From the NCBI GenBank assembly GCA_965153355.1, contig OZ231126.1, positions 11,408,001-11,472,000 of the forward strand: a stretch of DNA of 64,000 nt. The letters are read 5' to 3'. This DNA is from Flaccisagitta enflata. Its lineage: Eukaryota. Shown in pieces: positions 20,403-43,700 of this stretch. The notes beneath the pieces are model-generated. The model was not told the origin of the DNA and did not search any database. It saw only the letters and a list, made by a program, of their open reading frames with translations. Every line of letters begins with the position of its first letter. Position 1 is the stretch's first letter. A program made the position numbers and the translations under genes.

Positions 20403-21308
20403 TGTTAGAAATGTATGTCTGTCCGTCGCTTAGGTGTGTGTGCCTTCTGTCTCTTTTGCGTGCTTTTGGCTTTTTTCTCTTTCTCTACTATTCGATGCCC
20501 GTGTCTTTTGTTTCTTGCCATTTTTTATATTGAACGCTAGATGGGTAACCATATGGTTGCGCCTTGATTTTGTGCCATTTGTTTTTACTACGTAAGCAAA
20601 TATACGTAACTCGTCTTTCGTATCATCCAATTTTTGGATTGATTGATTTTATTTAATTATGGCATCGCTTCTTAAAGTGATTGATTGATTTTTATGATCG
20701 TTTGAATGCGCCCTTGGAATTCACTAATTTCAATAATCTCTCATCTTTTTATTGCAGATAAACTAATGAACGGACAATTAACGTTAATTTGACATCGACA
20801 GACTGTGGGTTGAAACCAACGAAAGTGGGCCTAAAAGTAAGTTTTATAGACGTGTTTCTGATTTTATTAGCGTTGTTTTTTCTGTTTTCCGTCTGTTATT
20901 TTTGTCTTTTGGCCTTGATTTTTATCGCCGGATTTTAGTATGTTTTTATCGCTGCCCGGTCAGCTTACTATAGGGATGATATGGATGAATTTAATGGGAT
21001 GGGCCGGGGCAGGGGCAGGTATTATCAGGTGGCATGGGCTCTGAAGAAGATGAACATGTTGTCATGTGCTGTTTCTGTCCTTTATTGTGTCCTATCTCGA
21101 TTTCATGTTATCTTTTGCGTTTGCTGATCACAATTAACGCCCACTTTCCCTTTCATTTTTCCTCTCTCTTCAGTTGTTGAAATTTTTATGGAATAAACGA
21201 GACGATCGCCTTCCTATTTTCCACCGGCCAACCTTCTTTCACTACAAGTCGTCAGTCAGATAGACGCTCATAGACAGTGCCAGTTGAAACTCGTGGGCGT
21301 AATTTACA
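20403..21308 (+). repeat. 5' LTR
   Basis: TGTTAGAAAT...GGGCGTAATTTACA; repeated at 32635-33528 and 44397-45288. Confidence 0.95.
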
Positions 21309-21495: not shown

Positions 21496-21912
21496 ATGCC
21501 GGCGCCTTCCGACGTGCCTCATTTCTGCGCCGAAGGAACGAATGACTTCGACGACGCTGCTGTGAATCAGATGGCGCTCGACACGGCCTTCGAGACATGG
21601 TCTACGACTTCATATCGATGCAAGAGAAATGGCGCTCGACTCGATGCCCGGCATTCTCTTCGATTCGCGGCGTCTACTTTGCGTCGAATCCGGCGCGAAT
21701 GGGACTCCATGCGTTTCTTTGATCGTGAAAACTATCCAGAGGGTTTTCCTTCCAACGCCGACATCGTGAACGCAGTGCACAACGACATTGGGAATCGCAA
21801 AAGACCCGTCAATGAATTCTCATGGAACAGTCTCCCAACTGACACTCACGCCGCCCGTGACAATGTTACCGGCGCTCCGACTCCAAGGATGCGAACGTCT
21901 TCGCCAAACCCC
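21496..21912 (+). CDS. Probable true N-terminus of Gag, one base out of frame with the main gag ORF
   Basis: ATG at 21496 opens a protein-like ORF overlapping gag; deleting one C from CCCC at 21909-21912 fuses ...RTSSPNP to TDPSIYHSPG... Confidence 0.45.
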
Positions 21913-24900
21913 GACGGATCCGAGTATCTACCACTCGCCCGGCGACATGGTGCGCATCTCCGACTGGCGGCCATTTCTAAATCTGCCGCCGATTCAAAGA
22001 GGAGACGCTGTCAATCAATGGGTATCAGACTTGGTCTCGGAAATTGAACCTGCGCGTGCGTCTCCAATGCAGCAAGCTGACGACATGCTTGCGGATCTCG
22101 ACGACGCCGACGCTCTCGCAAGAGGCCGCGGGATCATCAACGGATTGACGCCGCAGGAGAGGGCGTGGCGACGCTCGTCAACAGGAGTGGAGAGAGACAG
22201 ATGGGGTAGGCAGTTGGAGGAGGAAATGCGACAAGGCCGCCGGCTGATTAACGATATGCAGCAGCAACAACGGGAGGAGGAGCAGCGACAGCAACAGGAG
22301 CAACAGCAGCAGCATCAATTGCAGATGCAGCAGCAGCAACTCCAACAGCAACGTCAACTCCACCGACCACAGGAGCAGCAGCAAACGACGGCTCAACGGC
22401 AGCAGCAAGAGCTGTTGCAGCAGCAGCAGTTGCAGCAACTACAACAATTTTGTCAACAAGATCAGCAACAACAACAGAACCTGCAGCCGGCGCCACAACC
22501 TGTGGCGCAGCAACAGCAACAACACGATCAGCAGCAGCAGCAGCAGCAACAACAACAACAATCACAAAACGATGCAGGGGAAAACATGCAACAGCAACTG
22601 CAGCAGCAACAGCAACCTCCCGCCGCAATCCCAGCGGTGGTGGTGGATCCTCCAGCTTCAAACAACCATTTTGTCGAAAGCATGAACATCAGTGAGGAGA
22701 CAGAAGAAGAGAGACAGCAACGCCTTGCAGATCAACGGCTGCGCATGATGGCTGAAGGTGAAGGTGGTGATGCAGCAACAGCTCCAAAGGCGCCGATCGC
22801 GGTGCCATTGGGATTCCAACAACGAAGCTCATCACAAGAAGACAAGGACTTATACGACAAAATGTGTAACTTTCGCCAGCAGCAGCAACGAGATGAAGAT
22901 AGAAGAGCGGGAATATTCAACAATGCGGCAGAAATGCAACGGAAGCACTGGAATAGCCTGAACGACGGCGGCATTGGTGGGGCTTTAGAGCAGCGGGATG
23001 TGAAGCTTAGGCAACTGTCTGAGCTGGAACAGCAGCAGCCGCAGCATCCGCCAAAAGACCGTCGATCTATCTTCAGAAACGCCAATCCGGGATCGCTCAA
23101 TCCGAACATACAGCAACGCCATGTGCAGTCAGTGGAAACGTCCGTCAAGCAGCCGATGCAGCAGCAGCAACAGATGGAGCAGCAGCAGCAGCAAGGACAA
23201 CGCCAGCCGCAACTGCAGCAGCAGAATGAGCAGCAACAGCGTCCTGACCAGCAACAGCAGCTTCAACATCAACAGTGGCAGCAGCAACGGCTTCAACAAC
23301 AGCAACAGCATCAGGATCAGCATCATCAAACCCCAGCGGCAACGATTCTCCCCACCGCACCGGAAGTGATCTTCGAGAGGCAGATTGGCTCTGCTAGAAG
23401 GGAGACTGGTATTCCCCATCAAGAGGAAAAGGTCTTCAACACAGCCGGAAGCGGGGGTGATGCAACGGAGGCAATGCGCAGGAGGCAGAAGCAGGAGGCC
23501 GCTGACGCGAAGTTGGCACAACAGCTGCAAGATAAAGAAAGAAGAAAAGTCGCTCCTAAGAAGACAACGAATGGATTGCAGCCGAAGGCGCCGAAAGTAG
23601 CGCAAGCGCCTCTAGCAACGCCTCAAGCGGAAGTTATCCAGCAGAATCAGCGTTTGCAGCAAGAAGTGGACAGTTTGAAGATGCAGATTCAGCAGAGAGA
23701 CTTTGACCTTGCCGCAGCGAGAGCAGAAGAAAAACAGCGAAAAGAAGATCAACAACAGCGACAGTACGTCCGCCAAGATTTTGATGCTCCCCGATTCCAT
23801 CAAGATGATCGTCAACAACAAGTGAATCAGCAAGAGGAAGTGGGGTGGAGCGTAAAAACCACCAAAAAGAGATCTCCGGTGAAAGTCGGGGGTCAATACG
23901 CTTTCGTCCAACAACCCCCAGCGTATCATCAAGTGGAGCATCACCAAGTAGTCCGTCAACCGGAAGTTCACGTTCAGATGCCCAACAATCCGGCTCTGGA
24001 CAGGTTTTTGGAAAGAGCGACGTACAATGATCTCATGCGAGCAAGGGAGGTCGGCCTCAAAGCGTTGGAGAGAGCAAGACCTGAGAAGCCTCTGCAGGAG
24101 CTTTCGTCCACTGACTTTATGATGTGGAAGAGGAAGTTTAAAGATGCTGAGAAGCATGAAGGCTTGACGCAAATGGACATCTTATTGGAATTGCCTAAGT
24201 GGTTTGCTGGTCCGGCAAAAGAGATCATTGAAACTGCGACGATTGATGCAACTGAAGCGACAGCAAGAGGAGAGATTGACGACGCCTTCGCAAAAATGGA
24301 CGTCGTCTTCATGGCAAGGCGCTGCAACATTGCGGCGCTGTTCAACGAAATCGTCGCGGAGGCGAAGATCCAGTCGGCCGACCATGCAAGGCATTTCAAT
24401 TTGTCTGCAAGGTTGCAAAAGGCAAAGAAGATTGCGAGGACCTGTGGAGAAGTGCAACAATGCTATCGTGACGAGCTGCTGCAGGAGATCCTCAACAAGA
24501 GGGTCCCTCATCTTGCAGATAAATTCTGGGAAAAGCAACATGAAGCAGCCCTAAATGGACAAATGTTTTCATTCGACAATTTGGTCAACTTGATCGAGAC
24601 ATGGGCAGTGATTCAGCGCAACAAAGGCGCCAGCTGCAAAACAGCATCAGTGGCAGCAGTCGCAACTACAGAGAAAGAAGCGCCATCATCATATGAAGAT
24701 GCTTTGACCAATGGCAAGCAAAAGACGCAGTCGACGGACCGCTGCAACGTCTGCAGTGGAATGCATCAAACAGAAAACTGTCATCAACTGTTAGAGTTGG
24801 AAGTGGACGCGAGAGTTCAAAAGATCATGTCTCGTCGTCTTTGCTTCCACTGTCTCGCGCCAGGACACAACGCCAAAGGATGCGTGAACAGGCCGACTTG

Positions 24901-25117
24901 CCAAACCTGCAAGAAGCGGCACGCAACGATTCTCCACGGGCGCACCTACAAGAAAGAAGAAAGGGAAGAGAAGAAAGGAGAAAATAAGCAGGGAAATAAA
25001 GTACCGCTGGCTCCCTTCAAAAAGTCAGAGGATGCGGCTGCAGCAGCACCAACAACTTCGTCGACGACGGAGGCAGCCGATCCAACGGAAATCATCTCTC
25101 CTAACGCCACGGCATGA
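21788..25117 (+). CDS. gag: Bel/Pao Gag with long poly-Q region
   Basis: 1109-codon ORF; C-terminal CNVCSGMHQTENC, CFHCLAPGHNAKGC and CQTCKKRHATILH form the Bel/Pao triple knuckle; stop TGA at 25115-25117. Confidence 0.92.
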   Translation: MGIAKDPSMNSHGTVSQLTLTPPVTMLPALRLQGCERLRQTPTDPSIYHSPGDMVRISDWRPFLNLPPIQRGDAVNQWVSDLVSEIEPARASPMQQADDMLADLDDADALARGRGIINGLTPQERAWRRSSTGVERDRWGRQLEEEMRQGRRLINDMQQQQREEEQRQQQEQQQQHQLQMQQQQLQQQRQLHRPQEQQQTTAQRQQQELLQQQQLQQLQQFCQQDQQQQQNLQPAPQPVAQQQQQHDQQQQQQQQQQQSQNDAGENMQQQLQQQQQPPAAIPAVVVDPPASNNHFVESMNISEETEEERQQRLADQRLRMMAEGEGGDAATAPKAPIAVPLGFQQRSSSQEDKDLYDKMCNFRQQQQRDEDRRAGIFNNAAEMQRKHWNSLNDGGIGGALEQRDVKLRQLSELEQQQPQHPPKDRRSIFRNANPGSLNPNIQQRHVQSVETSVKQPMQQQQQMEQQQQQGQRQPQLQQQNEQQQRPDQQQQLQHQQWQQQRLQQQQQHQDQHHQTPAATILPTAPEVIFERQIGSARRETGIPHQEEKVFNTAGSGGDATEAMRRRQKQEAADAKLAQQLQDKERRKVAPKKTTNGLQPKAPKVAQAPLATPQAEVIQQNQRLQQEVDSLKMQIQQRDFDLAAARAEEKQRKEDQQQRQYVRQDFDAPRFHQDDRQQQVNQQEEVGWSVKTTKKRSPVKVGGQYAFVQQPPAYHQVEHHQVVRQPEVHVQMPNNPALDRFLERATYNDLMRAREVGLKALERARPEKPLQELSSTDFMMWKRKFKDAEKHEGLTQMDILLELPKWFAGPAKEIIETATIDATEATARGEIDDAFAKMDVVFMARRCNIAALFNEIVAEAKIQSADHARHFNLSARLQKAKKIARTCGEVQQCYRDELLQEILNKRVPHLADKFWEKQHEAALNGQMFSFDNLVNLIETWAVIQRNKGASCKTASVAAVATTEKEAPSSYEDALTNGKQKTQSTDRCNVCSGMHQTENCHQLLELEVDARVQKIMSRRLCFHCLAPGHNAKGCVNRPTCQTCKKRHATILHGRTYKKEEREEKKGENKQGNKVPLAPFKKSEDAAAAAPTTSSTTEAADPTEIISPNATA

Positions 25118-28100
25118 CTGGCGGCGACGGCAACGTCGCGGTCCGTCTCTTCATTCGACGACGTTGTCCGTCCGATCGTTCCAGTGACTATTATAAACAA
25201 TTCTTCGGGTGCGCAGAGGACGATTTACGCTATGATCGACTCAGGCGCTGATCGCGACGTGATCAGTACCAATGTCATTCGCAGTCTTCTGATTCCAACA
25301 AAAACAGTGCAAATGACGGTGATTACTGTGGGAAGTCATGTTGTTGAGGATCGTTTCATCGCTTCATTCACCATGCAATCGGTCGACGAGGAATATGTCG
25401 TCGACATCAGCGACGCATTGGTGGGTGATTTGTTAACGAGTGAACGCGATATTCCTCCTTTTCTCCGCGACCTATCTGACCAACCTCACATCGAAGGCGT
25501 AAAATTTCCAGAAGCTGAAGGCGGTGTGATGATGATCATCGGAGCGGCGCATGCGGATGCCGCCGTCGCTCAAGAAATCCGTCGAGGGCCTTCAGGATCT
25601 TTGACTTGCTTTAGATGTCTATTCGGTTGGACTGTATGTGGAAAAACGGGCAAAAGAGGACGAGATATTGCGTCGATCAACGCTATCGCGACGGATGACC
25701 GCGTCCTCAACGATAATATCGATCGCATCCTCGACAATCGCGTCCTCAACAGCAACATCGACCGCATCTTCTACCATGACTTTGCATCATCAATCGTCTC
25801 GCAAGAGGAGATGGGTGATTCCCTCGAAAATGTCAGAGCGTGCAAAACGTTAGAGGAAAAAATATATTTTTGCCCAATTGTGAAAAAGTACTTTGCTCCC
25901 GTCACATGGAAATTTCATCATGAAAAAATCATGGAGATTCTGAGAAGAGTGAAATCACGACCGACTGCGATGAAGCGACTCGGCAACCAACGTTTTCGCT
26001 TCAAGCGTGATCCAGCCTTCAAAGAAAGAGTCTTCCGTGAAATCGAGAAGTTTTACGAGACGGGAGTGGCGATTGAGATTGACAACGTCGACGACGACGA
26101 CGGCATTGAGAAGCCGCGCTGGTATTTGCCGCTTCATATTGTCGAATTGCGCGGAAAAACGCGCGTATGTCATGATGCGCGTGCGGCGACCGACGGGATC
26201 TCACTCAATGATTTGCTCGTCGGAGGCCCAAACTTGATGAATAGCCTGATGGACATCCTCATGCGTTTTCGTCAGTGGAAAATCGCCTTTATGTGTGACA
26301 TAAAGGCGTTTTTCCACCAAATCCGCGTCCATCCTGACGACGCTGATTTATTCAGATTCTTCTGGTTCAAAGATCGCACCCTTCGAGAAGCAATTTTGAA
26401 TCTGTTTCTATCACACGTCTTCGGCAGCCAATCCAGCTCATTCGTCACATCTTTCACCGTCAGAAAGCATGCTGAAGTAATCCGGCCCAAATATCCCTAC
26501 AACGTCTACGATCTTATTCGCTATGGCTTTTACGTCGACGACGGAAGTGGGGGTGGGGATTCGGTCGACGAAGCACTGCAACTAAAGGTGGATTCAGTGG
26601 CGGCGATGGCGGAAGGCGGGATGGACCTTGTGAAGTGGAAGAGCAATGCGCGGCAATTGATGGATGGAGATCCAAATGTGCCAATCCCCATTTCAGATAA
26701 GCAAGATGATGCGCCGACGAAGGTGTTGGGCGTCTCATGGCTTCCGGCGGAAGACGTCTTCATTTTCATCTGCGACGAAGAATTCAAAACTCTTAGGGCA
26801 AAGACACCTCGTCAATTGGTCTCCATGCAAGCCAAACTTTATGATCCATTGGGATTTTGGAGTCCAAGCGCATACATCGGCAGACGACATCTTCAACTTT
26901 GTCGTCCACAGGAAGTGGGATGGGATTCGCCCTTGGAAGAGAGCGTCGAGGAATCCTTCTTCCGCTACACTTCATCTTGGCCTCTTCTACAACAATACCG
27001 AATTGAACGCTGGTGGAATGGCGGCGTCGACAACAGTGACATTGCGGAAATAACAATCGAGATCTTCTGCGATGCAGCTCCAAAAGGCGGATATGGAGCG
27101 GTTGCATATCGACGTCAAGTCAACCGAGATGGAGATGTTCACATTTCATTCATCGCCTCCAAATCTCACGTCATTCCACTCAATCCAAAACGTGCTTCTC
27201 ATCACAACAGCGTTCCACGCGTCGAGATTGTATCCGCGGAAAAGGCAGTGCAGCTCAAACGCTTCGTCGGAAGGACCATCAACTTGGACAATCTCGTCGT
27301 CAGATTTTGGTCTGATTCTGAATCTGCACTGAAGATGATTTACAATCCGGCGAAACCGAGGCCTGTGTTTTTCGCCAATCGTCTCTCCAAGATCCATAGT
27401 GGGTCTGATCCTCAACAGTGGCGCTGGGTTGATTCGTCAAACAACCCGGCGGACCACTGCAGCAGAGGCATCCAGGCCCATGAAGCCGAAAAATGGCGTC
27501 AATTCCATCACGGTCCCGCATTTTTGCGTCTTCCCGAAGATCAATGGCCAAAGACGAACATCGCGACGTGCCCTATTTCTGCACAAGTCGCCGCATTATA
27601 TGTGGCTGAAAGTGAAAAGAAAGAAGTGGCTGACGCGATACTTCTTGCAGCAGCTTCTCGGGGAAAATGGATGCACAAGTTGCGGATCATCGGCATGGTT
27701 CTTATCGCAGCCAAAAGGTGGAGAGCGTATCCAAGGGCGAAGACACGAGCAACAAAGGATCTCCTTCCTAAACCGGAAGTGACGCAAGACGTTTTGGAGG
27801 AGGCGCGCAAACAGCTCGTCAAGTCAATGCAGCGGCATCATTATTCAGACGTCTTTGAACAATTGGAGTTGGGAAAAGTATTCAAGCCAGAAAGCCGTCA
27901 TGACTTTATCATCAAAAACAAAGAGATGCGGAAATTGAATCCTTTCGTCGACGACGACGGTATCATTCGCGTCGGCAGTCGATTGGAAAACGCCGACATC
28001 GCACATGACGCTAAATTCCCCTTCATTTTGCCGCCAAAAGACGAGAATGTGAAATCATTGATTCGTCATTATCATCACAATGATTTTCACGCGGGTGCAA

Positions 28101-29167
28101 AGCATACGTTGTGCCAATTACGCCAGTTTGTGTGGATTACAAAAGGTCTTCAGGCTGTCAAGAGCGTCGTCAACACGTGCTTCAGATGCCAGAAGAACTT
28201 TAAAAAGAACGCAAATCAGCAAATGGCCAATCTTCCATCAAATCGCGTCAATCCTGCACCTGTTTTTGCAGAGACTGGATTGGATGTCATGGGGCATTTC
28301 CTAGTGAAGATGAACGGGCGTGCTGATCACAAGGTGTGGATCGCAGTGTTCACCTGTTTCGTGTCACGCGCCGTCCATGTGGAATTGCTCTTCAACATGT
28401 CAGCTGATGCGATGGTAAATGCAATCATCCGCTTGGCAGCAAGGCGCCCAGGAATTCCGCTGTTTCACTTCAGATTGCGGGACGAATCTAGTAGGCGCCA
28501 ATAATATCCTCAAGAAGGAAATGGAAGCTTGGAACCGCTCGTCAACTCCCGAACTGCAGCGGCGCGGCCTTCGGTGGGATTTTATCACGCCGAGAACACC
28601 CCACTATGGAGGGGTGTGGGAGAGAATCGTCGCTCTCTTTAAGCGCCATCTTGCTTCCATCTCAACTGGCGCCATCCTCCACGTCGACGCCTTCAACACT
28701 GCCGTTGTCGAAGTTGAAGGACTTCAACGTCGCCTCTGACAGCGCTCAGCGATGATCCAAATGACTCTGAGGCCCTTACACCGAATCATATCCTCAATCC
28801 ATCTACATCCGGCCATGCCCCTCTAGATCTGGTGCAACAAGGCGTCAACTCTGACGCCGACTCTGCGAAGATTCAATGGAGGCGTGCGCAATCGCGTGTG
28901 GATGCATTTTGGAAATCATGGAGGGTCGAATACTTGTCGCTTCTTCACGCGCGAAGCAAATGGTCGAGATCCGAGAAAGACTTTGCGGTGGATGACATGG
29001 TCATCGTCATGGACGAAACGCTGCCTCGTCACAATTGGAGTTTAGGACGTGTCATGGGCGTCGAGGGTTCGTCAGCCCATGTCCGGAGGGCTCACATCCG
29101 GCGCCAGGATGGAAAGATCGTGACGAAAGACCGCACGAAGCTCGTGCGGCTGGAATTGGACTCATAA
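25118..29167 (+). CDS. pol: Bel/Pao Pol (protease, RT, RNase H, integrase); in frame with gag; frameshifts in integrase near 28450 and 28720
   Basis: PR AMIDSGAD; RT RVCHDA, LNDLL..GPNL, DIKAFFHQI, FYVDD; RH FCDAA..YGAVAY, WSDS, WRWVDSSNNPADHCSRG; IN HHNDFHAG..CFRC, GLDVMG, FTCFVSRAVHVE, SDCGTN, HYGGVWER; C-terminal FWKSWRVEYL..R.KW; TAA at 29165-29167. Confidence 0.93.
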
Positions 29168-29519
29168 AAAACGCTAAGTTTTTGAGAGAGAGAGAAAAAG
29201 GCGCATGGGCCTGTCCATTAGTAACTATAGATATGAGTGATTGATACTCTGACTTGTTATATTTACAAAGAGTTGTTATTATTCATATTTGGTTCTGATT
29301 ATCCATGCTTTCATCTTTCCTCTTGTCAATTATGTTGTCCATTTCCATTTACACATCAAAACACTGATTCATTCGCTCTGTCTATATGTACATATTATTG
29401 TGCCAAATCCGTTCTTACCTTTATCAGTTCTTCAACACGAACATTTCAAAGCTTCCGCTGACGACGTCATTCCATCTACGAAGTCAGTTTGCATCTTGAA
29501 GTCGCTCGTCGGAGTCAAG

Positions 29520-32090
29520 ATGTCCCGTCAGCAGCGTCTCGAGGCTGAAGCCGACGTGTCGACGTCGTACGGGTCCTTGGATCTTCATCGACTCTTCAAC
29601 GACGGCTCAACTCGAGAGGGATCTGCATCCACGACGTCGTTCGGGGCGGAGGAGGAGGCTGTCGCGCTGGCAGCCTTCAATGGCGACCTTCGTTCCGTCG
29701 TCGACGCAAAAATGGCGAATAAAAAGCGTCAACAAGATGATGCGTTGGTAAATCGTCAACAGCCATCCAACGCCGTTGATCCCGCGTCGCTTCCTCCATT
29801 GGTGGTCATCAGAGATGGAGGTTCGAGGCGGATTTCGATCAATCGGCCGCCGACGGACTTATTCACCACTTCTGCGGCGGCGTCATCATCGTCGGATTTG
29901 CCCTCATCGCCTCGCCAATTCTGCCTTGATTTCGGGCGCCCAGCGCCTCGTGATCAAGCCGTCTGCATGCACATCAACGCAAAGGGGCGAAGAGAGAGAG
30001 AGATTAATGAAGATGGGAGCAAGAGTGTGGAGGAGGAGGGGATGAAAGAGGAGGAGGTGCTGGTGAATGGGGAGGTGGTGGAGAAAGACATTGACCCGGA
30101 AGTGGACACTGCGACTCCGGAAGAGAAACACCAACGGATGCAGGCGCGTTGGTGGTATCGTATCATCAGCCCGGACGTCAAGTATCTCTCTTCAAAGAGC
30201 TTCTGAAAACTGGTATGCTGCAACAAACAAACTCTCATGCGCTCATCGGCTAATCAAACAGAGCTTTGCTCGGAGACTCTGGAGCGCAAAATCCAAAGCC
30301 ACAAGAGAAGGAGGGAGCATGATAAGGAGGTTCGCGCATGCATCCAGCGACGAAGAGGAAGAATGCATGCCCGGCTTCCTGGTGCAATCTCCGCCGACGC
30401 TCGTTAGTCTCCACCAGCGGTGGCTCGTGCTCGACGCAGCCGCAGCTACATCAGCGGCACCACTCTTACAGCATCAGGGAAGGTTAACGCGCCCCTGACT
30501 GCTCATCCCCAAATCAGCAGCAAATAGGTCCTCGTGACGTCACTCCTCACAAAAATCGAAGAGGATCACGTCAAAAGACTTCACAAAACGCGCAATGCCG
30601 GTAGTCAATGTGGGCCAGATTCCAAAAGCAAAGGCCCCCTTCAAGCGCCTCCAGGCGCGCCCCTGCAGCAGTAACGCCCAAAGGCCAAGGAGAAGCCAAG
30701 CGGTTCGCCGACGGCACAAGGCAGCAACCCAGAAGCTGGATCAGGCGCCTGGGGCAGCAGCAAAGGAAGAAGACCACGAGAGCTGGGAAGAAGCACAGCA
30801 GCAACCAAGGAGGTTCTACGGCGGTGCTTCGCGTCCGCTGCCAAACTCAAGGCTCTGGCCAGCAGACGGGAGCGTTTTTCCTTCACTCGCAGCCATCAAA
30901 AGCCGCGGTAGGAAGCGAACTAGCTGGCGGTGCTTCAGCATCTGTTGTGCTGGTGTAGCGCTCGTCAGCAACCGAAAGCCTGCCAAGGCCTGCAGCAAGT
31001 GCAGAACCCGCCTCCTTCGTCGGATCCAGCCTTTGATCCTGCGCATGGACACCACATCGCCGAGTCATTGCTACGAGAAGCCTCTTTACTGACCTCAAAT
31101 GCTCCATTGGGGGTGGTGAAGAATTTAGCATCAAGGCTTCCAAATGACTTCTTCTAAACGCTTCCTCCGCGTCAACGAGTTGAAGCGGCTCGTCAAGTCT
31201 TAGACGAGCGAATTCGTCGCAACATCCAAAAGGAGAAAGACGATGCTCGCCGCAGAAAGCAGCTATGGCTGCGGACAATGAGGTGGTCAAAGGCACCAAG
31301 CGAGTCGTGGAACTGGAGAAGCAGCTTGAAAGGAGAAGCAGGCCTGGTGCAATGAAGGCTAAGAAGAAAGAGGAAGCGGTGAAACGCGCAAAGGCGGCTA
31401 TGGTCGCCGATTTTAAAACTGCGTCCGCCGTACGCCCAAAATTTCGACTGGCACCGAACTGCGATGCAGTATCTCCACCTCCTGCGCCTTCTCCAGCAGA
31501 AAAAGTCTGTCAGCAGATCCCGTCGCAAAAAGACGCTCTCAAGCCTGGGAATAAGAAAAATCGAACCAGGTCTTGGAAAAATCAGACCGCCAGCTAAACG
31601 CTGATTAAAGCTACGCCCAGTTGCTGTTCAACTTAATTACCACTTTGCAACATGTGGTGGAGAGCGCCGCCATTCGCTGAGGATCGTGATCTTCCCACCT
31701 TCACATCCTCATCTCATCGATGGACAGGTCGTGCTGTCAGCGCCACCCGGGGCGTGGGGGAATGACGTCTGCCCCGCCCGCGAAAACGCCCGCGTAAGTT
31801 TCATGGTTTGGGAAGGGTTGAAGTTGAGTTTTGTTTGTAAATTTGAATCTGTGTACGATAAGAACTTTACTAATCAATCTGCCCCCATTTTTCTTTTTCC
31901 TTTCTTCCTTCGGGAGGATACACTTCAGATCTAAGCTGCACCACCTGCGCCTTTCGATGCGGTCGCCGTCGACGACATCACTCATCGCCTCCGCCCACGA
32001 GTGTTGACGAGGTGTTGGATCCGGAATGACCCGCTCGTCTCTGTAACGGAGAAGGCGCAGGTGATGTGGTCGTTCCATGATGCTTACTAA
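29520..32090 (+). CDS. Putative third (accessory) ORF of the retrotransposon; unknown function, frameshifted in this copy, probably one intron (31794 to about 31916-31928)
   Basis: Successive plus-strand ORF pieces (29289-30206, 30067-30498, 30595-31157, 31265-31597, 31686-) whose peptides recur in the second copy (e.g. LREASLLTSNAPLGVVKNLASRLP, NDPLVSV.EKAQVMWSFHDA); acceptor cttacctttatcAG at 29427; donor cgc|GTAAGT at 31794; TAA at 32088-32090. Confidence 0.55.
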
Positions 32091-32634
32091 TTTTTCTTTT
32101 ATTCAACAGATTCGTTTTTATTATATAGTTAGTAATTTATTTAATTTTGTCTTGTTTTGTCTGGTTCTTTGGAACATGTACATTTTTACAGGGGCTTGTT
32201 TTAGACATGGTCTTAGTCATTATTACGAATACTGCAATGACATGTTTTAGTAGTATGCTCCCACTTATTCTTTCCACTTTCAAGTCAAATCCCAGGCTTG
32301 AGTGCCTCCTAGGCCTGCCCCCTCTCCCCCTTCCCTTTAACTTTTTCAGAACGGGCCTTCAACCTTCGCTGCTGCCTGCTCCCATCCGTCGTCATTGACG
32401 CAATTTTTGCTGCGGTGGATCCTTCCGACGTAAACACCATTCCGTGCAGTCGTCGACCTGTTGATAGTTAGGGTGGGGATGCAAGAGGCGGTGGACGGGG
32501 GGGGAGGGGCGGGGGTTGTGTCTATGTAAATTTTTTTTTAAGGAAGGTAGTATCGGTTTTTTAGTAGGGTTTTCGACTGAAATTCATTAGATGTCGGATT
32601 TTTTACCCGTGAAATCTCCAAAATGTAGCAGAAA

Positions 32635-33528
32635 TGTTAGAAACAGGCGTCTGTCCGCCGCTAGGTGTAGCCTTCTGCCCCTTTGCGTGCTTTTGGCTTT
32701 TTTCTTCCCTACTATTCGATGCCCGTGTCTTTTGTTTCCTGCCATTTTTTTATATTAACCAGATGGGTAACCATATGGTTGCCTTGATTTTGTGCCATTT
32801 GTTTTTACTACGTAGGCAAATATACGTAACTCGTCCTTCGTATCATCCACCTTTTGGATTGATTGATTTTATTTAATTATGGCATCGCTTCTTAAAGTGA
32901 TTGGTTACTGATTTTATGATCATTTGAATGCGCCCTTGGAATTCACTAATTTCAATAATCTCTCATCTTTTTTATTGCAGATAAACTAATGAACGGACAA
33001 TTAACGTTAATTTGACATCGACAGACTGTGGGTTGAAACCAACGAGAGTGGGCCTAAAAGTTTTATAGACGTGTTTCTGATTTTATTAACGTTGTTTTAT
33101 CTTGTTTTCCGGTGCTATTTTTGTCTTTTGCCCTTTTGCATTTTTATCGCTGGATTTTAGTATGGTTTTTTAACGTTTGCCCGATCAGCTATGGGGATGA
33201 TATGGATGAATTTAATGGGATGGGCCGGGGCAGGCGCTGGTATTATCAGGTGGCATGGGCTCTGAAGAAGATGAACATGTTGTCATGTGCTGTTTCTGTC
33301 CTTTATTGTGTCCTATCTCGATTTCATGTTACCTTGGTGTCACATCACAATTAACGCTCACTTTCCCCTTTCATTTTTTCCCTCTTCAGTTGCTGAAATT
33401 TTTAAGGAAAATAAAACGAGACGATCGCCTTCCTATTTTCCAATTCGGCCAACTTTCTTTCACCACAAGTCGTCAGTCAGATAGACGCTCATAGACAGTG
33501 CCAGTTGAAACTCGTGGGCGTATTTACA
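32635..33528 (+). repeat. 3' LTR
   Basis: TGTTAGAAAC...GGGCGTATTTACA followed by TSD GTGAG; the purine tract upstream is degenerate here but reads GGGGCAGAA in copy 2. Confidence 0.95.
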
Positions 33529-33659
33529 GTGAGCGTGTGTAGTTATTTGGCGGACGAATTTAGAATTTTGACCCAAATATACCCTTCAAGTAACCAGCCT
33601 TAGTACGCATCCGACAGTGTGACTGTTTGTTTGTCTCTCTGTCGGTCTGATTGTTTCCC

Positions 33660-33754
<95 letters not shown>

Positions 33755-33896
33755 CTGTCTGTCTGTCTATCTGTCTAAGACTAAGTGCTTGTCTGTGCGT
33801 TTGTGTTTGTGCGTTTCTGCGCACAGGTCACGATGCGTAGCTGTCTTCATTTTTCTCTCCACAAATTGCATATTCACCTCCCTTTTACCCTACAAG

Positions 33897-34204
33897 GTGA
33901 TGATAAAATCGTTGATGGAGCGGAATTCCGAATTAGAACATGAATTGGCGGAAGCTCAGCGGAAAGCGGAAGAAATGACTCGCAAAGCGGAAGATTTCCG
34001 ACGGACGAAAGAATCGGAAATTATTCTGGCGAAACGACTGAAGGAATTGGAAGCGGAAGCGGAAGAGTTGGCAGCGGAAAAAGACAGAGCCATCGCTGCC
34101 GCGGAAGAATGTCATAGAGAGGAGTTAATCGGTTACAAAGAACAAATACGACAACACTCGTTGACTATTGTGGCGATGGAAGATAGAGTGTCCAGAGCCA
34201 ACAG
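33897..34204 (+). CDS. FHAD1: FHAD1-like coiled-coil protein, exon
   Basis: Acceptor ccttttaccctacaAG|; YKEQIRQHSLTIVAMEDRV resembles the FHAD1 motif YKEQI.QH..TIV..E (from memory); donor ag|GTGAGT, phase 2. Confidence 0.8.
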
Positions 34205-34227
34205 GTGAGTCATGTGAATGCCAACAG

Positions 34228-35049
<822 letters not shown>

Positions 35050-36199
35050 AGTTATCACCGACCATCTCTCCTTTTCCCTTTCCCTTTTTTTCTGACCAAA
35101 GAAAACAACAACACGCAATCTACAACAAATATAATATACAGGAAATGCTGCAGCCGTTTTCATTTAAGGCTGATTGCAATCCCATTTCTTCCTCTTTACT
35201 CTCACCGGAGGCCCTTTCTTCATATTTATTTGACCCGAGGGCAAAGTCAAGGACAATCTATTTCCACGATCCGTTTCATCCTTCTCTTCTCTGTTTCTGT
35301 TCAAAAAATCTCCACTTCTTGCCTCCAGGCACCTCCCCCCTATCCTAGAAGCAGACACTTAACATTTATGGAGCAACAAGCTTTTTTGTATTTTTCACTT
35401 GTCTCGCTATTTTCCGTGCCGATTAAGTAACTTTCAGAAGAGCGCGTAAAGGTGCCCTGCTGCATGGAAGGGAATGGGATATGATAACACGGTGAAAACA
35501 GAAAGGAAAGCCAAAGAAATGAATTAAACTAAACGAAACTTTGAGAAAGTTACGAGAAGAAATTAAGTCTGTATCCAAGACCTAATTGGCATATTGCAGT
35601 ATAAATGATCGTACTATTTTGATGGATGAAGATGTAGTTTCAATATTATATGAGGCAGAACTCATGATCAATCTAGTTTAGACGCATGAGAAAAGTATTC
35701 AAGGTGGTTCTATTAAGTCATTAACCGGGGGTATCATCACGGATCTAGTTGTTATGATCTTTGACATGGATAATGTCGATCGGTAAATTCATTAATTTTA
35801 GAATTTTAGAATTTTAGAATTTATTAATTTTAGATTCATTAATTTTAGAATTTTAGAATTTTAGAATTTTAGAATTAATTTTAGAATTTAGAATATACGC
35901 GAAATTTTCAGTGGTGAGTAGTGACAAACCTCAGATCTGTGAAGTGACACAGTGAAGTTGGGCAGATAACTTGAGCACTATTCGCACCAAGAGACTCCCA
36001 TGAGAGCTACCGCACCTAATGTCCTCCGACCTTTTAAGAATCGAGAACGGGCGCAGAAAAAATGCTGCCGTCAGTACCGCTGGATACGCCAATCACTTCA
36101 TCTGTATTCACCATGATTATCTTCCCTTTTCCCTCACACACCCCTTCCACAAACATTTCCATCCGCCCCTTCCACCCCCCCCCCTACTCCCCCTCTCAG

Positions 36200-36521
36200 A
36201 CAAAGTCAAGAGCAAGCAGCCGAGATGGAAGAACGATTCAACGAAATTTCGGCGCTCGAGGCCAAGATCCGTCAACTGGAAGAGGAAAAGGAAAATCATG
36301 CGCTGGAGGCGTCCGCAGACTCGGAAGCCATGAAGAGACTCTCGGGAAGAGGAGGAAGAGGAGGAGGAGCTGATGGAGGCATCGATTACACGGCCAAAGA
36401 TATTTACGCCATGGAACAACTCATTCTGTTGTTGAGGAGAGAGACGGCGGATTTCAAAGTGGCTTTGAAGGAGAGAGACGAGACGATTGTGGGCATGAGG
36501 AAGGATCTACAAGGGGCGCAG
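36200..36521 (+). CDS. FHAD1: FHAD1-like coiled-coil protein, exon
   Basis: Acceptor ctccccctctcAG|36200 is phase 2 and matches the previous donor; heptad-like QEQAAEMEERFNEISALEAKIRQLEEE...LKERDETIVGMRKDLQGAQ; donor cag|GTGAGG, phase 0. Confidence 0.8.
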
Positions 36522-36530
36522 GTGAGGAAA

Positions 36531-36653
36531 ATGGTGATGATGATGGTGATGGTGATGGTGATGGTGATGGTGATGTCGATGGTGATGATGATGATGGTGA
36601 TGGTGATGGTGATGATGATGATAATGATGATGATGGTTATGGTGATGGTGATT

Positions 36654-36707
<54 letters not shown>

Positions 36708-36711
36708 ATGG

Positions 36712-36781
<70 letters not shown>

Positions 36782-36807
36782 AATGGTTAAGATACTGATG
36801 ATGATGT

Positions 36808-36851
<44 letters not shown>

Positions 36852-36860
36852 GTGCTAAAT

Positions 36861-36934
<74 letters not shown>

Positions 36935-36935
36935 C
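36531..36935. repeat. Intronic (GAT/GGT)n microsatellite
   Basis: Directly visible. Confidence 0.95.
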
Positions 36936-37121
36936 CATGATAGTAATGCCATAATTCTGATTATGAATTGACTGAAATGATGATGACTGAAATGATGCCA
37001 TGAAGTGATGATGATCATGAGGAACAATTTTGCGATGATAATGATGTTGATGTTGATGTTCAAAGAAGAAGCAACAACCACGCCCTACATTTTTCTTTCA
37101 CGCCCCCCCCCCTTTCCAAAG

Positions 37122-37604
37122 GCCAAGCTTTCGGACATGACCGGTGAATTATCGGAAGAACAAAAACTCTTCATAGAAGACTTACAATCATTGGCTGAAA
37201 CACAAAGAGCCGATTTGATATCAGCTAATCAGAAACTGACTTCTCTCTCGACGGCCGTGGAAACGCAAACCAAAGAAATTTCCAGTTTAAATTCGGAATT
37301 AACACAAAAATCGAATCAAATTTCGAAACTCGAAAACCGCCTTCAAGAATCGGAAGCGAAAAACGAATCCTTGAAGGCGGAAGTTGAAACGCTTCGTCAA
37401 GCGAAAGCCGCCCTCGAGGCCGCGGCGGAGGAGAATCAGACGCTGACGAAAGAGTTGGCGAATCTCGGGGCGCAATGTCGAGGAGAACGCCATAGTCACG
37501 TGATACAAAGGCAAAGAGAAGCGTTGAGTGAGATGAGGAACAAGATCAGGACGCTGGAGTCAACGAGGCCGCCAACGCTGGATAAGGAAGAAGCGCTACA
37601 GCAG
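37122..37604 (+). CDS. FHAD1: FHAD1-like coiled-coil protein, exon
   Basis: Acceptor ccctttccaaAG|, phase 0; AKLSDMTGELSEEQK and LGAQCRGERHSHVIQRQREALSEMRNKIRTLE resemble FHAD1 motifs (SD..GEL.E.QK; GA.C.G.RH..VIQRQ..ALSE.R..I..LE); donor cag|GTGATT. Confidence 0.85.
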
Positions 37605-37634
37605 GTGATTGTAGCAGGTTGTTGCTGTTGTTGT

Positions 37635-37666
<32 letters not shown>

Positions 37667-37705
37667 CTGCTGCTGCTGCTGTTGCTGTTGTTGTTGCTGT
37701 TGTTG

Positions 37706-40700
37706 TCCACGAAAAGCCTTCAGGATCTTTGACTTGCTTCAGATGTCTATTCGGTTGGATCATGTGGAAAACGGGCAAGAGAGGACTAGATATTGCATCA
37801 ATCAACGCCATCGCGACGGATGACCGCGCGCCTCAATGATAACATCGCATCGCATCTCCATAATCGCGCCTCAACAGCAACATTGACCGCACCTTCTACC
37901 ATGATTTTGCATCATCAATCGCCTCGCAAGAGGAGATGTGGTGATTCCTTGAAATGTCAGGAGCGCAAAAACGTTAGAGGAAAAAGACATAGCTTTTTGC
38001 CCAATTGTGAAAATACTTGCTCCTGTCACATGGAAATTTCATCACGAAAATATCATGGAGATTCTGAGAAGAGTGAAATCACGACCGACGATGAAGCTAC
38101 CCGGCAACCAACGCTGCCTAAGCGTGATCCAGCCTTCAAAGAAAGAGTCTTCCGTGAAATTGAGAAGTTTTACGAGACGGGAGTGGCGATTGAGATTGAC
38201 AACGTCGACGACGACGACGGCATTGAGAAGTCAGCGCTGGTATTTGCCGCGCGCTTCATATTGTTAATGGCGCGGAAAAATCTGCGTATGTCACGATGCA
38301 CGTGCACTCGATGGGATCTCGCTCAATGATTTGAGCTCAAGGAGGTCTAAATCTCTGATGAATAATAGCTCTGATGGACATCCCCTACTGCTATTAGTGG
38401 AAAACTCGCTTTATGTGTGATATAAAGTATGCCATCTCAAATCACATCCATCCTGACGACGCTGATTTATTCAGATTCTTTTGGTTCATGGACCGCACTC
38501 TTCGAGAAGCAATTTTGAATCTGTTTCTATCACACGTCTTCGGCAGCCAATCCAGCTCATTCGTCACATCGCTCACTGTCAGAAAGCATACTGAAGTCAT
38601 CCGGCCCAAATATCCCCACAACGCCTACGATCTTTTATTCGCTTCGGCTTCTACGCCGACGACGGAAGTGGGGGTGGGGATTCGGTCGACGAAGCACTGC
38701 AGTTGAAGGTGGATGCAGGGGCGGCGATGGCTGAAGGCGGGATGGATCTTGTGAAGTGGAAAAGTAATGCGCGACAATTGATGGATGGAGATCCAAATGT
38801 GCCAATCCCCATTTCAGATAAACAAGATGATGCGCCGATGTAGGTGTTATGCGTCTCATGGCTTCCAGCGGAAGACGTCTTCATTTTCATCTGCGACGAA
38901 GAATTCAAAACTCTAAGAGCAAAAACACCTCGTCAATTGGTCTCCATGCAAGCTAAACTTTATGATCCATTGGGATTTTGGAGTCCAAGTGCAGACGACA
39001 TCTTCAACTCTGTCGTCCACAGGAAGTGGGATGGGATTCGCCCTTGGAAGAGAGTGTCGAGGAATCCTTCTTCCGCTACACTTCATCTTGGCCTCTTCTA
39101 CAACAATACCGAATTGAACGTCAGGAATGGGCGGCTGCCGACAACAGTGACATTAAGTAAATAACAATTGAGATCTTCTGTATGCTCCAAAAGGCGGATA
39201 TGGAGCAGCTGTATATCGACGTCAAGTCAAATCAGGTATGGAGATGTTCACATTTCATTCATATCGCTCCAAATCTTCACGCCATTCCACTCAATCCAAA
39301 ACGTGCTTCTCATCACAACAATGCTCCACGCTTCGAGATTGTATCCTCAGAAAAGGCAGTGCAGCTCAAACGCTTCGCCGGAAGGACCATCAATTTAGAC
39401 AAACTTGTCGCCAGATTTTGGTCTGATTCTGAATCTGCACTGAAGATGATTTACAATCCGGCGAAACCGAGGCCTGTATTTTTCGCCAATCGTCTCTCCA
39501 AGATCCATAGCGGGTCTGATCCTCAACAGTGGCGCTGGGTTGATTCTTCAAACAACCCGAAGGACCACTGCAGCAGAGGCATCCAGGCTCATGTCGCGGA
39601 AAAATGGCGTCAATTCCATCACGGTCCCGCATTTTTTGCGTCTTCCCGAAGATCAATGGCCAAAGACGAACATCGCGACGTGCCCTGTTTCTGCACAAGT
39701 CGCTGCATTGTATGTGGCTGAAAGTGAAAAGAAAGAAGTGGCTGACGCGATACTTCTTGCAGCAGCTTCTCGGGGAAATGGATGCACAAGTTGCGGATCA
39801 TCGGCATGGTTCTTATCGCAGCCAAAAGGTGGAGAGCGATCCAAGGGGCTAAGACATCAGCGACAAAGACTTCCTAAACCGGAAGTGACGCAAGACGTCT
39901 TGGAGGAGGCGCGCAAACAGCTCGTCAAGTCAATGCAGCGGCATCATTATTCAGACGTCTTGGAACAATTGGAGTTGGGAAAAGTCTTCAAGCCAGAAAG
40001 CCATGACTTCACATCAAAAATAAAGAGATGCGGAAATTGAATCCTTTCGTCGACGACGACAGCATCATTCGAGGCTGCAGCCGATTGGAGAACGCCGACA
40101 TCGTACATGACGCTAAATTTCCCTTCATTCTGCTGTACCAAAGACGTAGAATGTGAAATCATTAACTCACTGCATTATCATCACAATGATTTTCTATCGC
40201 TGGTGTAAAGCATACGTTGTGCCAACTACGCCAGTTTGTGTGGATATGTGCTATTCCAGCGCCAAGAGCTGCCGTCAACACGTGCCTAGATGTGCCAGAA
40301 GAACTTTAAAAGCAGCCCAAATCAGCAAATGGCCAATCTTCCATCAAATCGCGACAATCCTGCACCTGTCTTTGCAGAGACTGGATTGGATGTCATGGGG
40401 CATATCAAAGTCAAGATGATCGGAAGTGCTGATCACAAAAAAAGGATCGCAGTGCTCACCTGTTTTGTGTCACGCGCCATTCATGTGGAATTGCTCTTCA
40501 ACATGTCAGCTGATGGTAATGGCAATCATCCGCTGTGCAGCAGATGGCGCCAGACTCCATGTTTACCTCAGATTGCTGGACGAACTAGTAGGCGCCTGGT
40601 CAATATCCTCAAGAAGGAAATGGAAGCTAAATCATCATTAACTCCTTCTAACTGCAGCGGCGCGGCTCTTCGTGGATTTATCACGCCGAGAACACCCACT

Positions 40701-43700
40701 ATGGAGGGGTGTGGGGAGAGAATCGTTTCTCTCTTTAAGCGCCATCTTGCTTCCATCTCACCCGCCATCCTCCACGTCACGCTTCTAACACTGCTGCTGC
40801 TTCTGCTAAGGACTCTCAATCGCGCCCTCTGACAGCGCTCAGCGATGATCCAAATGACTCTGAGGCCTCACTAATCATATCCTTGTCCATCGATATCCGG
40901 CTGCCCTCTAGATCTGGTGCAACAAGGCCAACCACGCCACTCTGCGAAGCATCTGCAATGAGGCGTGCTAATCATGTAGATGCATTTGGAAATCGTGAGG
41001 GTTTAATACTTGTCGGCTTCACGCGCGAAGCAAATGGTCGAGATCCGAGAAAGACTTTGCGGTTGATGACATGGTCATCGTCATGGACGAAACGCTGCCT
41101 CGTTGCCACTGGCGAGACGTGTCATGGGCGCGAGGGTCTGGTCAGCCTGTCCGGAGGCTTGATCCGGGGCGCCAAGATGGAAGGATCGTGACGAAAGACC
41201 GCACGAAGCTCGTGCGTGCTGGAATTGGACCTCATAAAAACGCTAAGTTTTGAGAGAGAGAGAAAAAGATGGCCTGTCTATTAGTAATCATAGATATGAC
41301 ATTGAAACTCTGACTTGTTATATTTTTACAAAGAGTTGTTATTATTCATATTTGGTTCTGATGATTCATGCTTCTTAATTCCTTTCCTCTTGTTAATTAT
41401 GTTGTCCATTTCCACTTACACATTAAACACTGATTCATTCGCTCTGTCTATATGTACATATTATTGTGCCAAATCCGTTCTTACCATTATCAGTTCTCAT
41501 TAACATTTCAAAGCTTCCGCTGACGTACGTCATTCCATCTACGAAGTCAGTTCGATCTTGAAGCCGCTCGTCGGAGTCAAGATGTCCTGCCAGCAGCGTC
41601 TCGAGGCTGAAGCGGACGTGTCGACGCCGTACGGATCCTGGGATCTCCATCGACTCTTCAGCGACGGCTCGACTGAGAGGGATCTGCATCCACGACGCCG
41701 TTCGGGGCGGAGGAGGAGGCTGTCGCGCTGGCAGCCTTCAATGGCGACCTTCGTTCCGCCGTAGACGCAAAAATGGCGAATAAAAAGCGTCAACAAAGAT
41801 GATGCGTGGAAAATCACAACAGCCTTCCAACGCTGCTGATCCCGGTCATTTCTCCACAGACAATAAAGATGGAGGATCGGTATGGATCTCATCAATCGTC
41901 ACGGGACGGGATTCTATTCACCATCACAGCGTCATCATCATCATCGGATTTGCCCCCATCGCCGCCAATTCTGCCTGATTTCCGGTCGCCCAGCCGCCCG
42001 GGATCAAGCCGCCTGCAGCTGCACATCACCCAGCGGGCATGAGATTGGTCACGATGGAGCAAGAGGAGCGCAAAACTAAAGCAGTCACATGAGTGGAGCA
42101 GGACAAGGAGGTTCGCCGCATGGTCCAGGCGACGAAGAGGAAGAATGCGGCTCCTGATGCAACTGCAAACTCATCTGCTGCAACTTCCGTCGACGCTGCC
42201 GCAACTCCACCAGCGGTATTTGCGCTCGACGCAGCCGCAGCTACATCAGCGGCAATTCACTCTACAGCATCAGGAAGTCGTCAATCGCGCCCTGGATTGG
42301 TTCATCCCCCAAATCAGCAGCAACAGGGTCCTCGTGACGTCACTCCCTCACAACAGCCGAAGAGATCACGTCGGGGAAAGACTCCACAAACGCGCAATGT
42401 GCCGAGTCAACAAAAGGGCCAAATTCCAAAAGCAAAGGCCTCTCTGCTGCGCCTTCCGCGCGCTCCCCAACGTCAGCGCCAAGGAGAAGCTTCAAGCGGT
42501 TCGTCGACGGCAACGCGGCAGCAACTCCAGAAGCACCAGGCGCTCGGGGCAGCTGCAAAGGGAAGAAGACCCAGAGAGCTGGGAAGAAGCACAAAGCAGC
42601 AACCAAGGGAGGTTCTACTTGCGGCGCCGCGCCCGCTGTTAAAACCTCAAGTCTCTGGTCAGCAGATCGGAGCGCCTTCCTTTCACTCGCAGCCATCAAA
42701 GCCGCTGTAGAAGTTAACTATGCGTTTCAGCATCTGTTAAAGCTGGTAGCGCCTCGTCAGGGCAAACCGAAGCCCGTCTAAGGTCTGCGCAAAGTGCAGA
42801 ACCCGGCCTCCCGCGGATCCAGCCTTGGATCCTGCGCATGGACACACTACATCGCCGAAATATTGTTAATACGAGAAGCCTCTTTACTGACCTCAAATGC
42901 TCCATTGGGGGTGGTGAAGAATTTAGCATCAAGGCTTCCAAAAGACTTCTTCACAAGCCGCTCGCCTGCCACCAGGCAGCTGTTGTCAAGTCTTAGACGA
43001 GAGGATTCGCCGCAACATCCAAAAGGAGAGACGATAGCCATGAGCAGCAATGGCTATGACAATGAGGTGGTCAAAGGCAATAAGCTAGAAGTCGCGGGAA
43101 CTGGAGCAGCTGAAAGGAGAAGCAGGCCTGTGCGATGAAGGCTAAGAAAGAGAAGCGGTGAACGCCAGAAGGCGGTTATGGCCGCCGACTTTAAAATCCG
43201 CAGCCTCGCCGTGACGCCCAAAATTTCGACTGGCCAATTGCGATGCAGCACTCACCCTCCTGCGTCTTCCTGCAGCAGAAAAGTCGGTCAGCAGATCCTG
43301 TCGCAAAAGACGCTCCCAAGCCTGGGAATAAGAAAATCGAACCAGGCCTTGGAAAAATCGGACCGCCAGCTAAACGCTGATTGGTGCCACGCCCAGTTGC
43401 TGTTCAATTTAATTACCAATTTGCAACATGGCGTGGAGAGCGCGCTTATTCTGAGGATCGTATTCCACTATCACATCCTCATCCCATCGATGACAGGCTG
43501 GGAGTCGGGGCGCCACCTGGGCGTGTGGGAATGACGCCCGCCCGGCCTGGCGAAAACGCCCGCGTAAGTATCATGGTTCTGGGAAGGGTTGAGGTTGAGT
43601 TTTTGGTGTGAATTTGAATCTGTGTACGATAAGAACTTTATTAATCAATCTGCCCTTTTTCTTTCTCTTCCTTTTCTTTCCCTTCGGGGAGGATCCACTC

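Follow-up and report, generated by a model that had tools for sequence, protein, structure and literature searches.

In a 64,000-nucleotide (nt) window on the forward strand of Flaccisagitta enflata contig OZ231126.1, we examined a long terminal repeat (LTR) retrotransposon whose domains identify it as a member of the Bel/Pao superfamily (Belpaoviridae-type). The window is the whole stretch of DNA analysed, and all coordinates refer to it. The element carries gag and pol in one reading frame, parted by a single in-frame UGA that is followed by C (UGA-CUG, 25115–25117, plus strand). We infer that Pol is probably made as a Gag-Pol fusion by programmed UGA readthrough, and we hold this reading with appreciable reservation. 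By analogy, the signal would be of the type known from alphaviruses and the Drosophila kelch gene, in which UGA-C is followed by 8 nt and then a stem. Readthrough would also be the simplest route into pol.

In the proposed mechanism, translation of the genomic RNA would normally end at the gag UGA and yield Gag. In a minority of ribosomes a near-cognate tRNA would read the UGA and elongation would go on in frame, producing a Gag-Pol fusion that the element's own protease would then cut. The UGA-C(UG) context would favour readthrough, and a hairpin beginning 8 nt past the stop probably stimulates it. Alphaviruses, several plant viruses and Drosophila kelch place such a structure where the mRNA enters the ribosome, and with UGA in the A site this hairpin would occupy the corresponding position. 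Other cases of UGA readthrough suggest Trp, Arg or Cys as the inserted residue.

A single in-frame UGA separates gag and pol

At the junction, the letters read ACG GCA TGA CTG GCG GCG. Two open reading frames (ORFs), measured stop to stop, meet here in one frame (21770–25117 and 25118–28504). Across 2,243 codons the gag-pol frame contains one TGA, at the junction, and one TAA, at its end; TGA occurs 47 and 66 times in the two remaining frames. The terminator of pol is TAA and that of gag is the leakier TGA, which sits exactly within the linker between nucleocapsid and protease. The junction thus combines an in-frame UGA-C with a downstream ORF in the same frame that lacks a start of its own.

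The first in-frame ATG past the stop is found at 25232–25234, two codons ahead of the catalytic aspartate in the DSGAD motif. The region between the TGA and this ATG is nonetheless coding, because several protease residues encoded there do not vary across an alignment of six sequences (D14, V16, R18, P19, I20, V21, V23, I25, N27 and G31, all upstream of M39). Since these conserved residues precede any in-frame AUG, translation must enter pol from the gag frame. Frameshifting would not serve, because pol lies in the frame of gag.

Two other ways around the stop were tried and rejected. A GT...AG intron that would remove it (25001–25183, judged by eye) would take the conserved RPIVP residues out with it. 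An AUG overlapping the gag stop (AUGA, 25114) opens a 45-codon ORF in another frame (25114–25251) that runs across the hairpin and shows no sign of use; reinitiation at this overlap would lead only into that ORF.

The stop is inherited

A 1,165-nt metagenome contig (L001), 96% identical to the element with 52 differences, carries the same TGA and the same hairpin. Of the codons that changed, gag has 18 synonymous and 11 non-synonymous ones, and pol has 12 and 5, respectively. Because substitutions are mostly synonymous on both sides of the stop, the gag and pol frames both diverged under coding constraint. L001 also has a private TAA farther on in the protease. At the DNA level, conservation of the stop refers to L001 only; for the distant split relatives described below, it refers to the position of the junction in proteins. 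Scans of viral contigs and genome contigs yielded no DNA of more distant relatives, and metagenome contigs gave the L001 locus only.

Judging by sequence comparison, we exclude a private nonsense mutation of this copy, a check that the original prediction had raised, because L001 keeps the TGA and the gag and pol fragments of relatives never span the junction. More broadly, the family might be dead and carry a fixed nonsense mutation, the assembly might be in error, or UGA might be a sense or selenocysteine codon in the host. The broken integrase frames and diverged LTRs of this copy would fit decay. However, L001, which comes from independent data, has this stop too, the end of gag is constant in relatives from 93% to ~30% identity, and both the mostly synonymous substitutions and the position of the stop in the nucleocapsid–protease linker argue against it. 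Reassignment would have to contend with the absence of any other TGA in 2,243 codons; with no further in-frame TGA, we rejected UGA as a sense or selenocysteine codon, although no search aimed at a selenocysteine insertion sequence was made. We regard this whole group of explanations as very improbable.

The family is extremely abundant and diverse in the DNA run of organism A. This run, X1, contributed 15,883 contig pieces over 23900–28600, divided by identity into 6,229 at 99% or above, 5,963 at 95–99%, 3,070 at 90–95% and 621 below 90%. Near-identical pieces also turn up in RNA library X15 and in marine metagenome runs, where 20 rows belonging to 13 studies contain this region in full or in part. 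Contigs from X3 (24789–25224) and X15 cover the junction, and no variant falls within 25108–25191 among the variants listed (40 of 272). A gag variant reading NVTA, seen among relatives below, is visible in organism A reads as C>T at 25107, at about one-quarter of the depth.

Separate gag and pol proteins mark the element's clade

We searched for relatives using junction-spanning protein queries in which the stop was read as X. These returned 9 clusters (138 candidates) and a further 2 clusters (5 candidates), and the junction was crossed by 0 of the 11. Gag fragments end in ...SPNATA (P0001, 93% identity; P0204, 55%), ...SPNVTA (P0002, 80%) or ...GSQA (P0009, 56%). Pol fragments begin past the junction, either at MIDSGAD or at M-SSFDDVVRP or M-SSSDDVVRP.

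An exhaustive search covered 1.84 billion representatives with an 801-amino-acid (aa) query (X at residue 340), and the best 150 matches were sorted. At 33% identity or above (42 of the best 150), 32 matches were pol proteins starting at or after the junction and 9 were gag proteins ending no more than 40 aa from it. P0053 was the single fused protein, so 41 of the 42 nearest representatives are split. Below 33% identity (108 of the best 150), 33 matches span the junction in one stretch, 56 have at least 150 aa upstream of it and 15 are split, giving 89 of 108 with fused gag-pol among the more distant representatives. One distant cluster of the fused type bears the name 'uncharacterized protein' and comes from sea urchin. 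The end of gag stays at the same spot in relatives from 93% down to ~30% identity.

Because the nearest relatives are split and the distant ones mostly fused, protein comparison identifies fused gag-pol as the superfamily background and the split as a conserved derived trait of this element's clade. We tentatively propose a further step: a marine-animal Bel/Pao clade (pol relatives to ~33% identity) may have lost the fused ORF and independently evolved gag-UGA-pol with an alphavirus/kelch-type hairpin, which would constitute a convergent origin of structure-stimulated readthrough in Belpaoviridae. We consider this broader scenario somewhat doubtful.

A hairpin lies 8 nt past the stop

Downstream of the stop, on the plus strand, an 8-nt spacer (CUGGCGGC, 25118–25125) leads into a hairpin consisting of a 5′ arm (25126–25141), a 13-nt loop (25142–25154) and a 3′ arm (25155–25173). 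The core stem pairs 25126–25138 with 25159–25172/3 and comprises 13 base pairs (bp) with T25167 bulged, which exceeds the ~11 bp expected of a stimulating stem ~8 nt past the stop. RNAfold recovers this core and extends it to 25 pairs (25117–25141 with 25155–25185) at −31 kcal/mol. The 3′ side of the lower extension (25174–25185) pairs with 25117–25125, and since these are the last base of the stop and the spacer, the extension would be unwound with the stop in the A site.

Constraint differs between the two arms. The linker codons that hold the 5′ arm (A T A T S R) are poorly conserved, as alignments A2 and A3 show, and leave it free to evolve pairing, while the 3′ arm encodes the conserved (F)DDVVRP of the protease N-terminus. 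Over the 11.3-kb interior of the element, 14 of 3,763 windows of 52 nt are equally stable, representing ~7 distinct sites. G+C content is 63% around the hairpin and 51% in the element interior. From the folding models, we conclude that the stem is real, moderately unusual and placed where readthrough stimulators sit. What makes it notable is its position directly behind the frame's only stop.

The original prediction described this arrangement from the letters, and its account of the region holds up. It had read GCA-TGA-CTG in one frame into the protease, had found no ATG until just before the catalytic motif (the first is at 25232), and had placed a 13-bp stem with one bulge after an 8-nt spacer, which both the sequence and the RNAfold fold bear out.

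The helix also bears on whether, in a share of the RNAs, A-to-I editing could act on the adenosine of the stop and convert UGA to UGG (Trp), on the model of the amber/W site of hepatitis delta virus. In the 25-pair imperfect helix, A25117 forms a basal pair with U25185, which would suit such an event. On the other hand, of all ADAR contexts a G on the 5′ side is favoured least, and RNA-library contigs display no A>G at 25117 among the variants listed (40 of 272), although contigs drop rare variants. We judge editing to be extremely improbable.

Comparison with known readthrough systems

The element most closely resembles the UGA-C signals set out in the available text of Firth et al. 2011 (PMC3159437), where similar cases include the alphavirus nsP3/nsP4 site, tobra-, peclu-, furo- and pomoviruses, Colorado tick fever virus and kelch. 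There, Venezuelan equine encephalitis virus (VEEV) combines UGA-C with an 8–9-nt spacer and an 11–12-bp stem with a 1-nt bulge; Drosophila kelch has an 8-nt spacer and 14 bp with a 1-nt bulge; several plant viruses have an 8-nt spacer and a stem of 12 or more bp; and Beet necrotic yellow vein virus has a 9-nt spacer, a 12-nt stem and an 8-nt loop. A spacer of at least 8 nt puts such structures at the mRNA entry channel, according to the accessible portion of a review (PMC13517186). The features in common with this class, as far as the available text describes it, are UGA-C, a spacer of 8 (7–9) nt, an 11–14-bp stem with a 1-nt bulge and a downstream enzyme made as a fusion, which is a prediction for our element. 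Two differences stand out. The element's loop is 13 nt, in contrast to ~100–270 nt in VEEV and kelch (the benyvirus loop is short), and the host of the putative signal here is a retrotransposon.

The gag-UAG-pol junction of murine leukaemia virus (MuLV) offers a second comparison. Both have an in-frame stop before the protease, an 8-nt spacer, a stimulator (putative in our element) that overlaps the codons of the protease N-terminus, and a Gag-Pol fusion as the product, predicted here. The MuLV type uses UAG, a purine-rich spacer together with a pseudoknot of the H type, whereas the element has UGA-C, the spacer CUGGCGGC and a plain hairpin. We rejected a MuLV-type pseudoknot signal on account of the UGA, this spacer, loop pairing no better than in control regions, and an Rfam search that gave no relevant match.

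Among LTR elements, the fission-yeast Ty3/Gypsy elements Tj1, Tcry1 and Tosmo1-3 conserve TGA with CT(A/G) after it where gag meets pol, as reported in the available text of PMC10085805. Like them, our element is an LTR element with gag and pol in one frame and a matching context, TGA-CTG. They belong to another superfamily, have GAA before the stop where the element has GCA, and come without a described hairpin in that text. In the Candida albicans Ty1/copia element Tca2, too, a UGA parts gag from pol and a structure is predicted downstream. When placed in a Saccharomyces cerevisiae reporter, the Tca2 junction drove readthrough no higher than background, and the available text of that study leaves the bypass unresolved (PMC2194720).

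Within its own superfamily, the element shares with typical Bel/Pao members its LTRs, a zinc-knuckle Gag, the domain order protease (PR), reverse transcriptase (RT), RNase H (RH) and integrase (IN), Peptidase_A17 and DUF5641. It departs from them in that gag and pol are split in its nearest clade, in this family by a single in-frame stop, and in its length of ~13.1 kb and Gag of ~1,100 aa. The Belpaoviridae profile of the International Committee on Taxonomy of Viruses (ICTV) gives gag and pol as continuous or overlapping genes only, and a size of 4.2–10 kb (PMC8742986).

Observations that weigh against readthrough

Several observations count against programmed readthrough aided by this hairpin. 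Equally stable folds arose in 5 of 200 dinucleotide shuffles (z score −1.97), and the total energy of the 201-nt context is ordinary (z score 0.05), with the same hairpin still in the minimum free energy fold. Pseudoknot potential was not found: 82 of 500 control regions pair at least as strongly as the loop-to-downstream duplex, at −16.5 kcal/mol. The sole related DNA (L001) shows no covariation, being unchanged over 25094–25176; a similar-length run just upstream (24964–25053) is also unchanged in L001, so the lack of change in the stem region is not significant. The window copy is defective, with its integrase frame broken twice and its LTRs only ~91% alike. It is possible, on the basis of the variants listed (40 of 272), that a minority of copies have a sense codon at the stop. 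The polyA RNA run X23 gave 0 reads on the stretch and is uninformative on expression. Lastly, the Tca2 precedent, as far as the available text goes, warns by analogy that such layouts can fail in reporter assays.

Some of these points would fit a stop that is bypassed without the local hairpin, through the UGA-CUG context alone, distant elements or a Tca2-like bypass. The hairpin would then be an incidental product of a G+C-rich linker and the DDVVRP codons. A stem that is only moderately unusual and shows no covariation agrees with this account. So does the Tca2 junction, which was inactive in the reporter despite its predicted pseudoknot, even though pol is made from gag-pol RNA (PMC2194720, available text), and so does the report that UGA-C or UGA-CU by itself raises readthrough (PMC10085805, available text). 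But the spacing and stem size closely fit described stimulators, and there is only a small chance that one of ~7 stable sites in 11.3 kb would fall 8 nt past the only stop. We therefore consider an incidental hairpin unlikely, though still deserving of weight.

The start sites called for relatives raise a different alternative, in which Pol is translated separately and no Gag-Pol is made. Reinitiation, initiation that is internal or uses a non-AUG codon such as the CUG beside the stop, or a subgenomic or spliced RNA could each achieve this. Many relatives have pol ORFs called with an M 0–17 aa from RPIV, and in five clusters (P0003, P0005, P0007, P0074 and P0205) the called pol fragments have an M in the same place. 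This M may be a genuine AUG, or the gene caller may have rendered a GTG as M; in the first case, separate initiation in those lineages is possible, which adds to the case against readthrough. The Tca2 junction, moreover, holds a weak promoter, as reported in the available text of PMC2194720.

Taken across relatives, however, called pol starts fall at scattered offsets, 0–17 aa before RPIV or after it, which points to the first start-like codon after a stop and not to a conserved pol AUG. Neither the element nor L001 has an in-frame ATG before the RPIVPV strand, the element's first one coming too late to include it, and the AUGA overlap opens nothing but the short ORF in another frame. In contigs from RNA library X15, no joint was seen at this point. 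Without a fusion, Pol would in addition require some other way into particles. Separate translation of Pol is accordingly quite unlikely in our estimation, and readthrough of the UGA into a Gag-Pol fusion remains our preferred reading.

Novelty and implications

The original prediction presented the junction as a candidate for a new mechanism, and in this respect it went too far. The combination of UGA-C, an 8-nt spacer and an 11–14-bp bulged stem is already described (PMC3159437, available text), as is TGA-CT(A/G) in Ty3/Gypsy elements (PMC10085805, available text). Our literature search found no paper linking BEL/Pao with translational readthrough; the recoding survey of Gao et al. 2003 might hold a prior mention, and De la Chaux and Wagner 2011 mention neither stop codons nor frameshifts. 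Readthrough is thus a known mechanism for which we found no description in Bel/Pao, and the element is a well-supported candidate.

Retroelements must set their Gag:Pol ratio, and the recoding device adopted by each lineage shows how often such devices arise. If our reading is correct, Belpaoviridae, whose genes are given in the ICTV profile solely as fused or overlapping, would gain stop-codon readthrough as an expression strategy. The element would then also be one more independent case of UGA-C, 8 nt and a stem, in an animal genome with an extremely abundant family. The abundant diverged copies constitute a natural series for studying how such signals evolve. Annotation pipelines that require one ORF or a frameshift will mis-call elements of this kind as broken.

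Organization of the element and its surroundings

The element is ~13.1 kb long and lies on the plus strand between a 5′ LTR (20403–21308) and a 3′ LTR (32635–33528), which are direct repeats of ~91% identity, each with TG...CA ends. The gag ORF, from first ATG to TGA (21812–25117), encodes a long Q-rich N-terminal part, a conserved core and Cys/His motifs, namely two CCHC knuckles (24743–24781 and 24842–24883) and a third Cys/His motif (24899–24937). Relatives of gag are P0001, P0002, P0009, P0044, P0104 and P0079.

The pol frame (25118–28504), which is gag's own frame, covers PR, RT, RH and the start of IN, with the motifs RPIVPV (25169–25186), DSGAD (25238–25252) and YVDD (26531–26542). The rest of the integrase (28419–29167) occupies two further frames, 28419–28739 and then 28718–29167, the latter containing DUF5641 and ending in TAA (29165–29167). 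The first of these integrase breaks coincides with a length difference from other copies, as seen in sequencing contigs aligned to the element.

We assign the element to Bel/Pao, as had been proposed at the outset, because pol contains Peptidase_A17 (Pao peptidase; E value 1.2e-28), Integrase_H2C2 (6.6e-9) and DUF5641 (1.8e-20), all Pfam domains, and gag contains CCHC knuckles. The order PR-RT-RH-IN downstream of a CCHC-knuckle gag, between two LTRs, is that of Bel/Pao. No tRNA genes were found in the 64-kb window.

The N-terminal half of Gag (21812–23600) is unusually long, at ~600 aa, glutamine-rich and of low complexity, and has no Pfam match. Gag relatives of 610–893 aa (P0031, P0060, P0067, P0119, P0135 and P0196) likewise have long N-terminal extensions, so this is a family trait and not a sign of decay. 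At the other end, ~3.5 kb separate the end of pol from the 3′ LTR (29168–32634) and hold ORFs of 317, 143, 184 and 137 aa without a Pfam match. This region may contain an env-like or other third gene, or may be non-coding, and it raises the element above the size range given for Belpaoviridae.

A second, 5′-truncated copy of the family lies at 37716–45277, made up of 37716–44396 and its own 3′ LTR (44397–~45277). It has several frame breaks and is ~88% identical in pol; it matches the element only from 25588 on and is without gag and the junction. Between the 3′ LTR of the first copy and the second copy lie ~4.2 kb of unrelated sequence (33529–37715), so the two copies share no LTR. This interval contains long microsatellites ((TCTG)n, (ACA/ATG)n-type and (GA)n) together with three exon-like pieces of coiled-coil ORF (for example, 36996–37823), and resembles part of a gene of the host.

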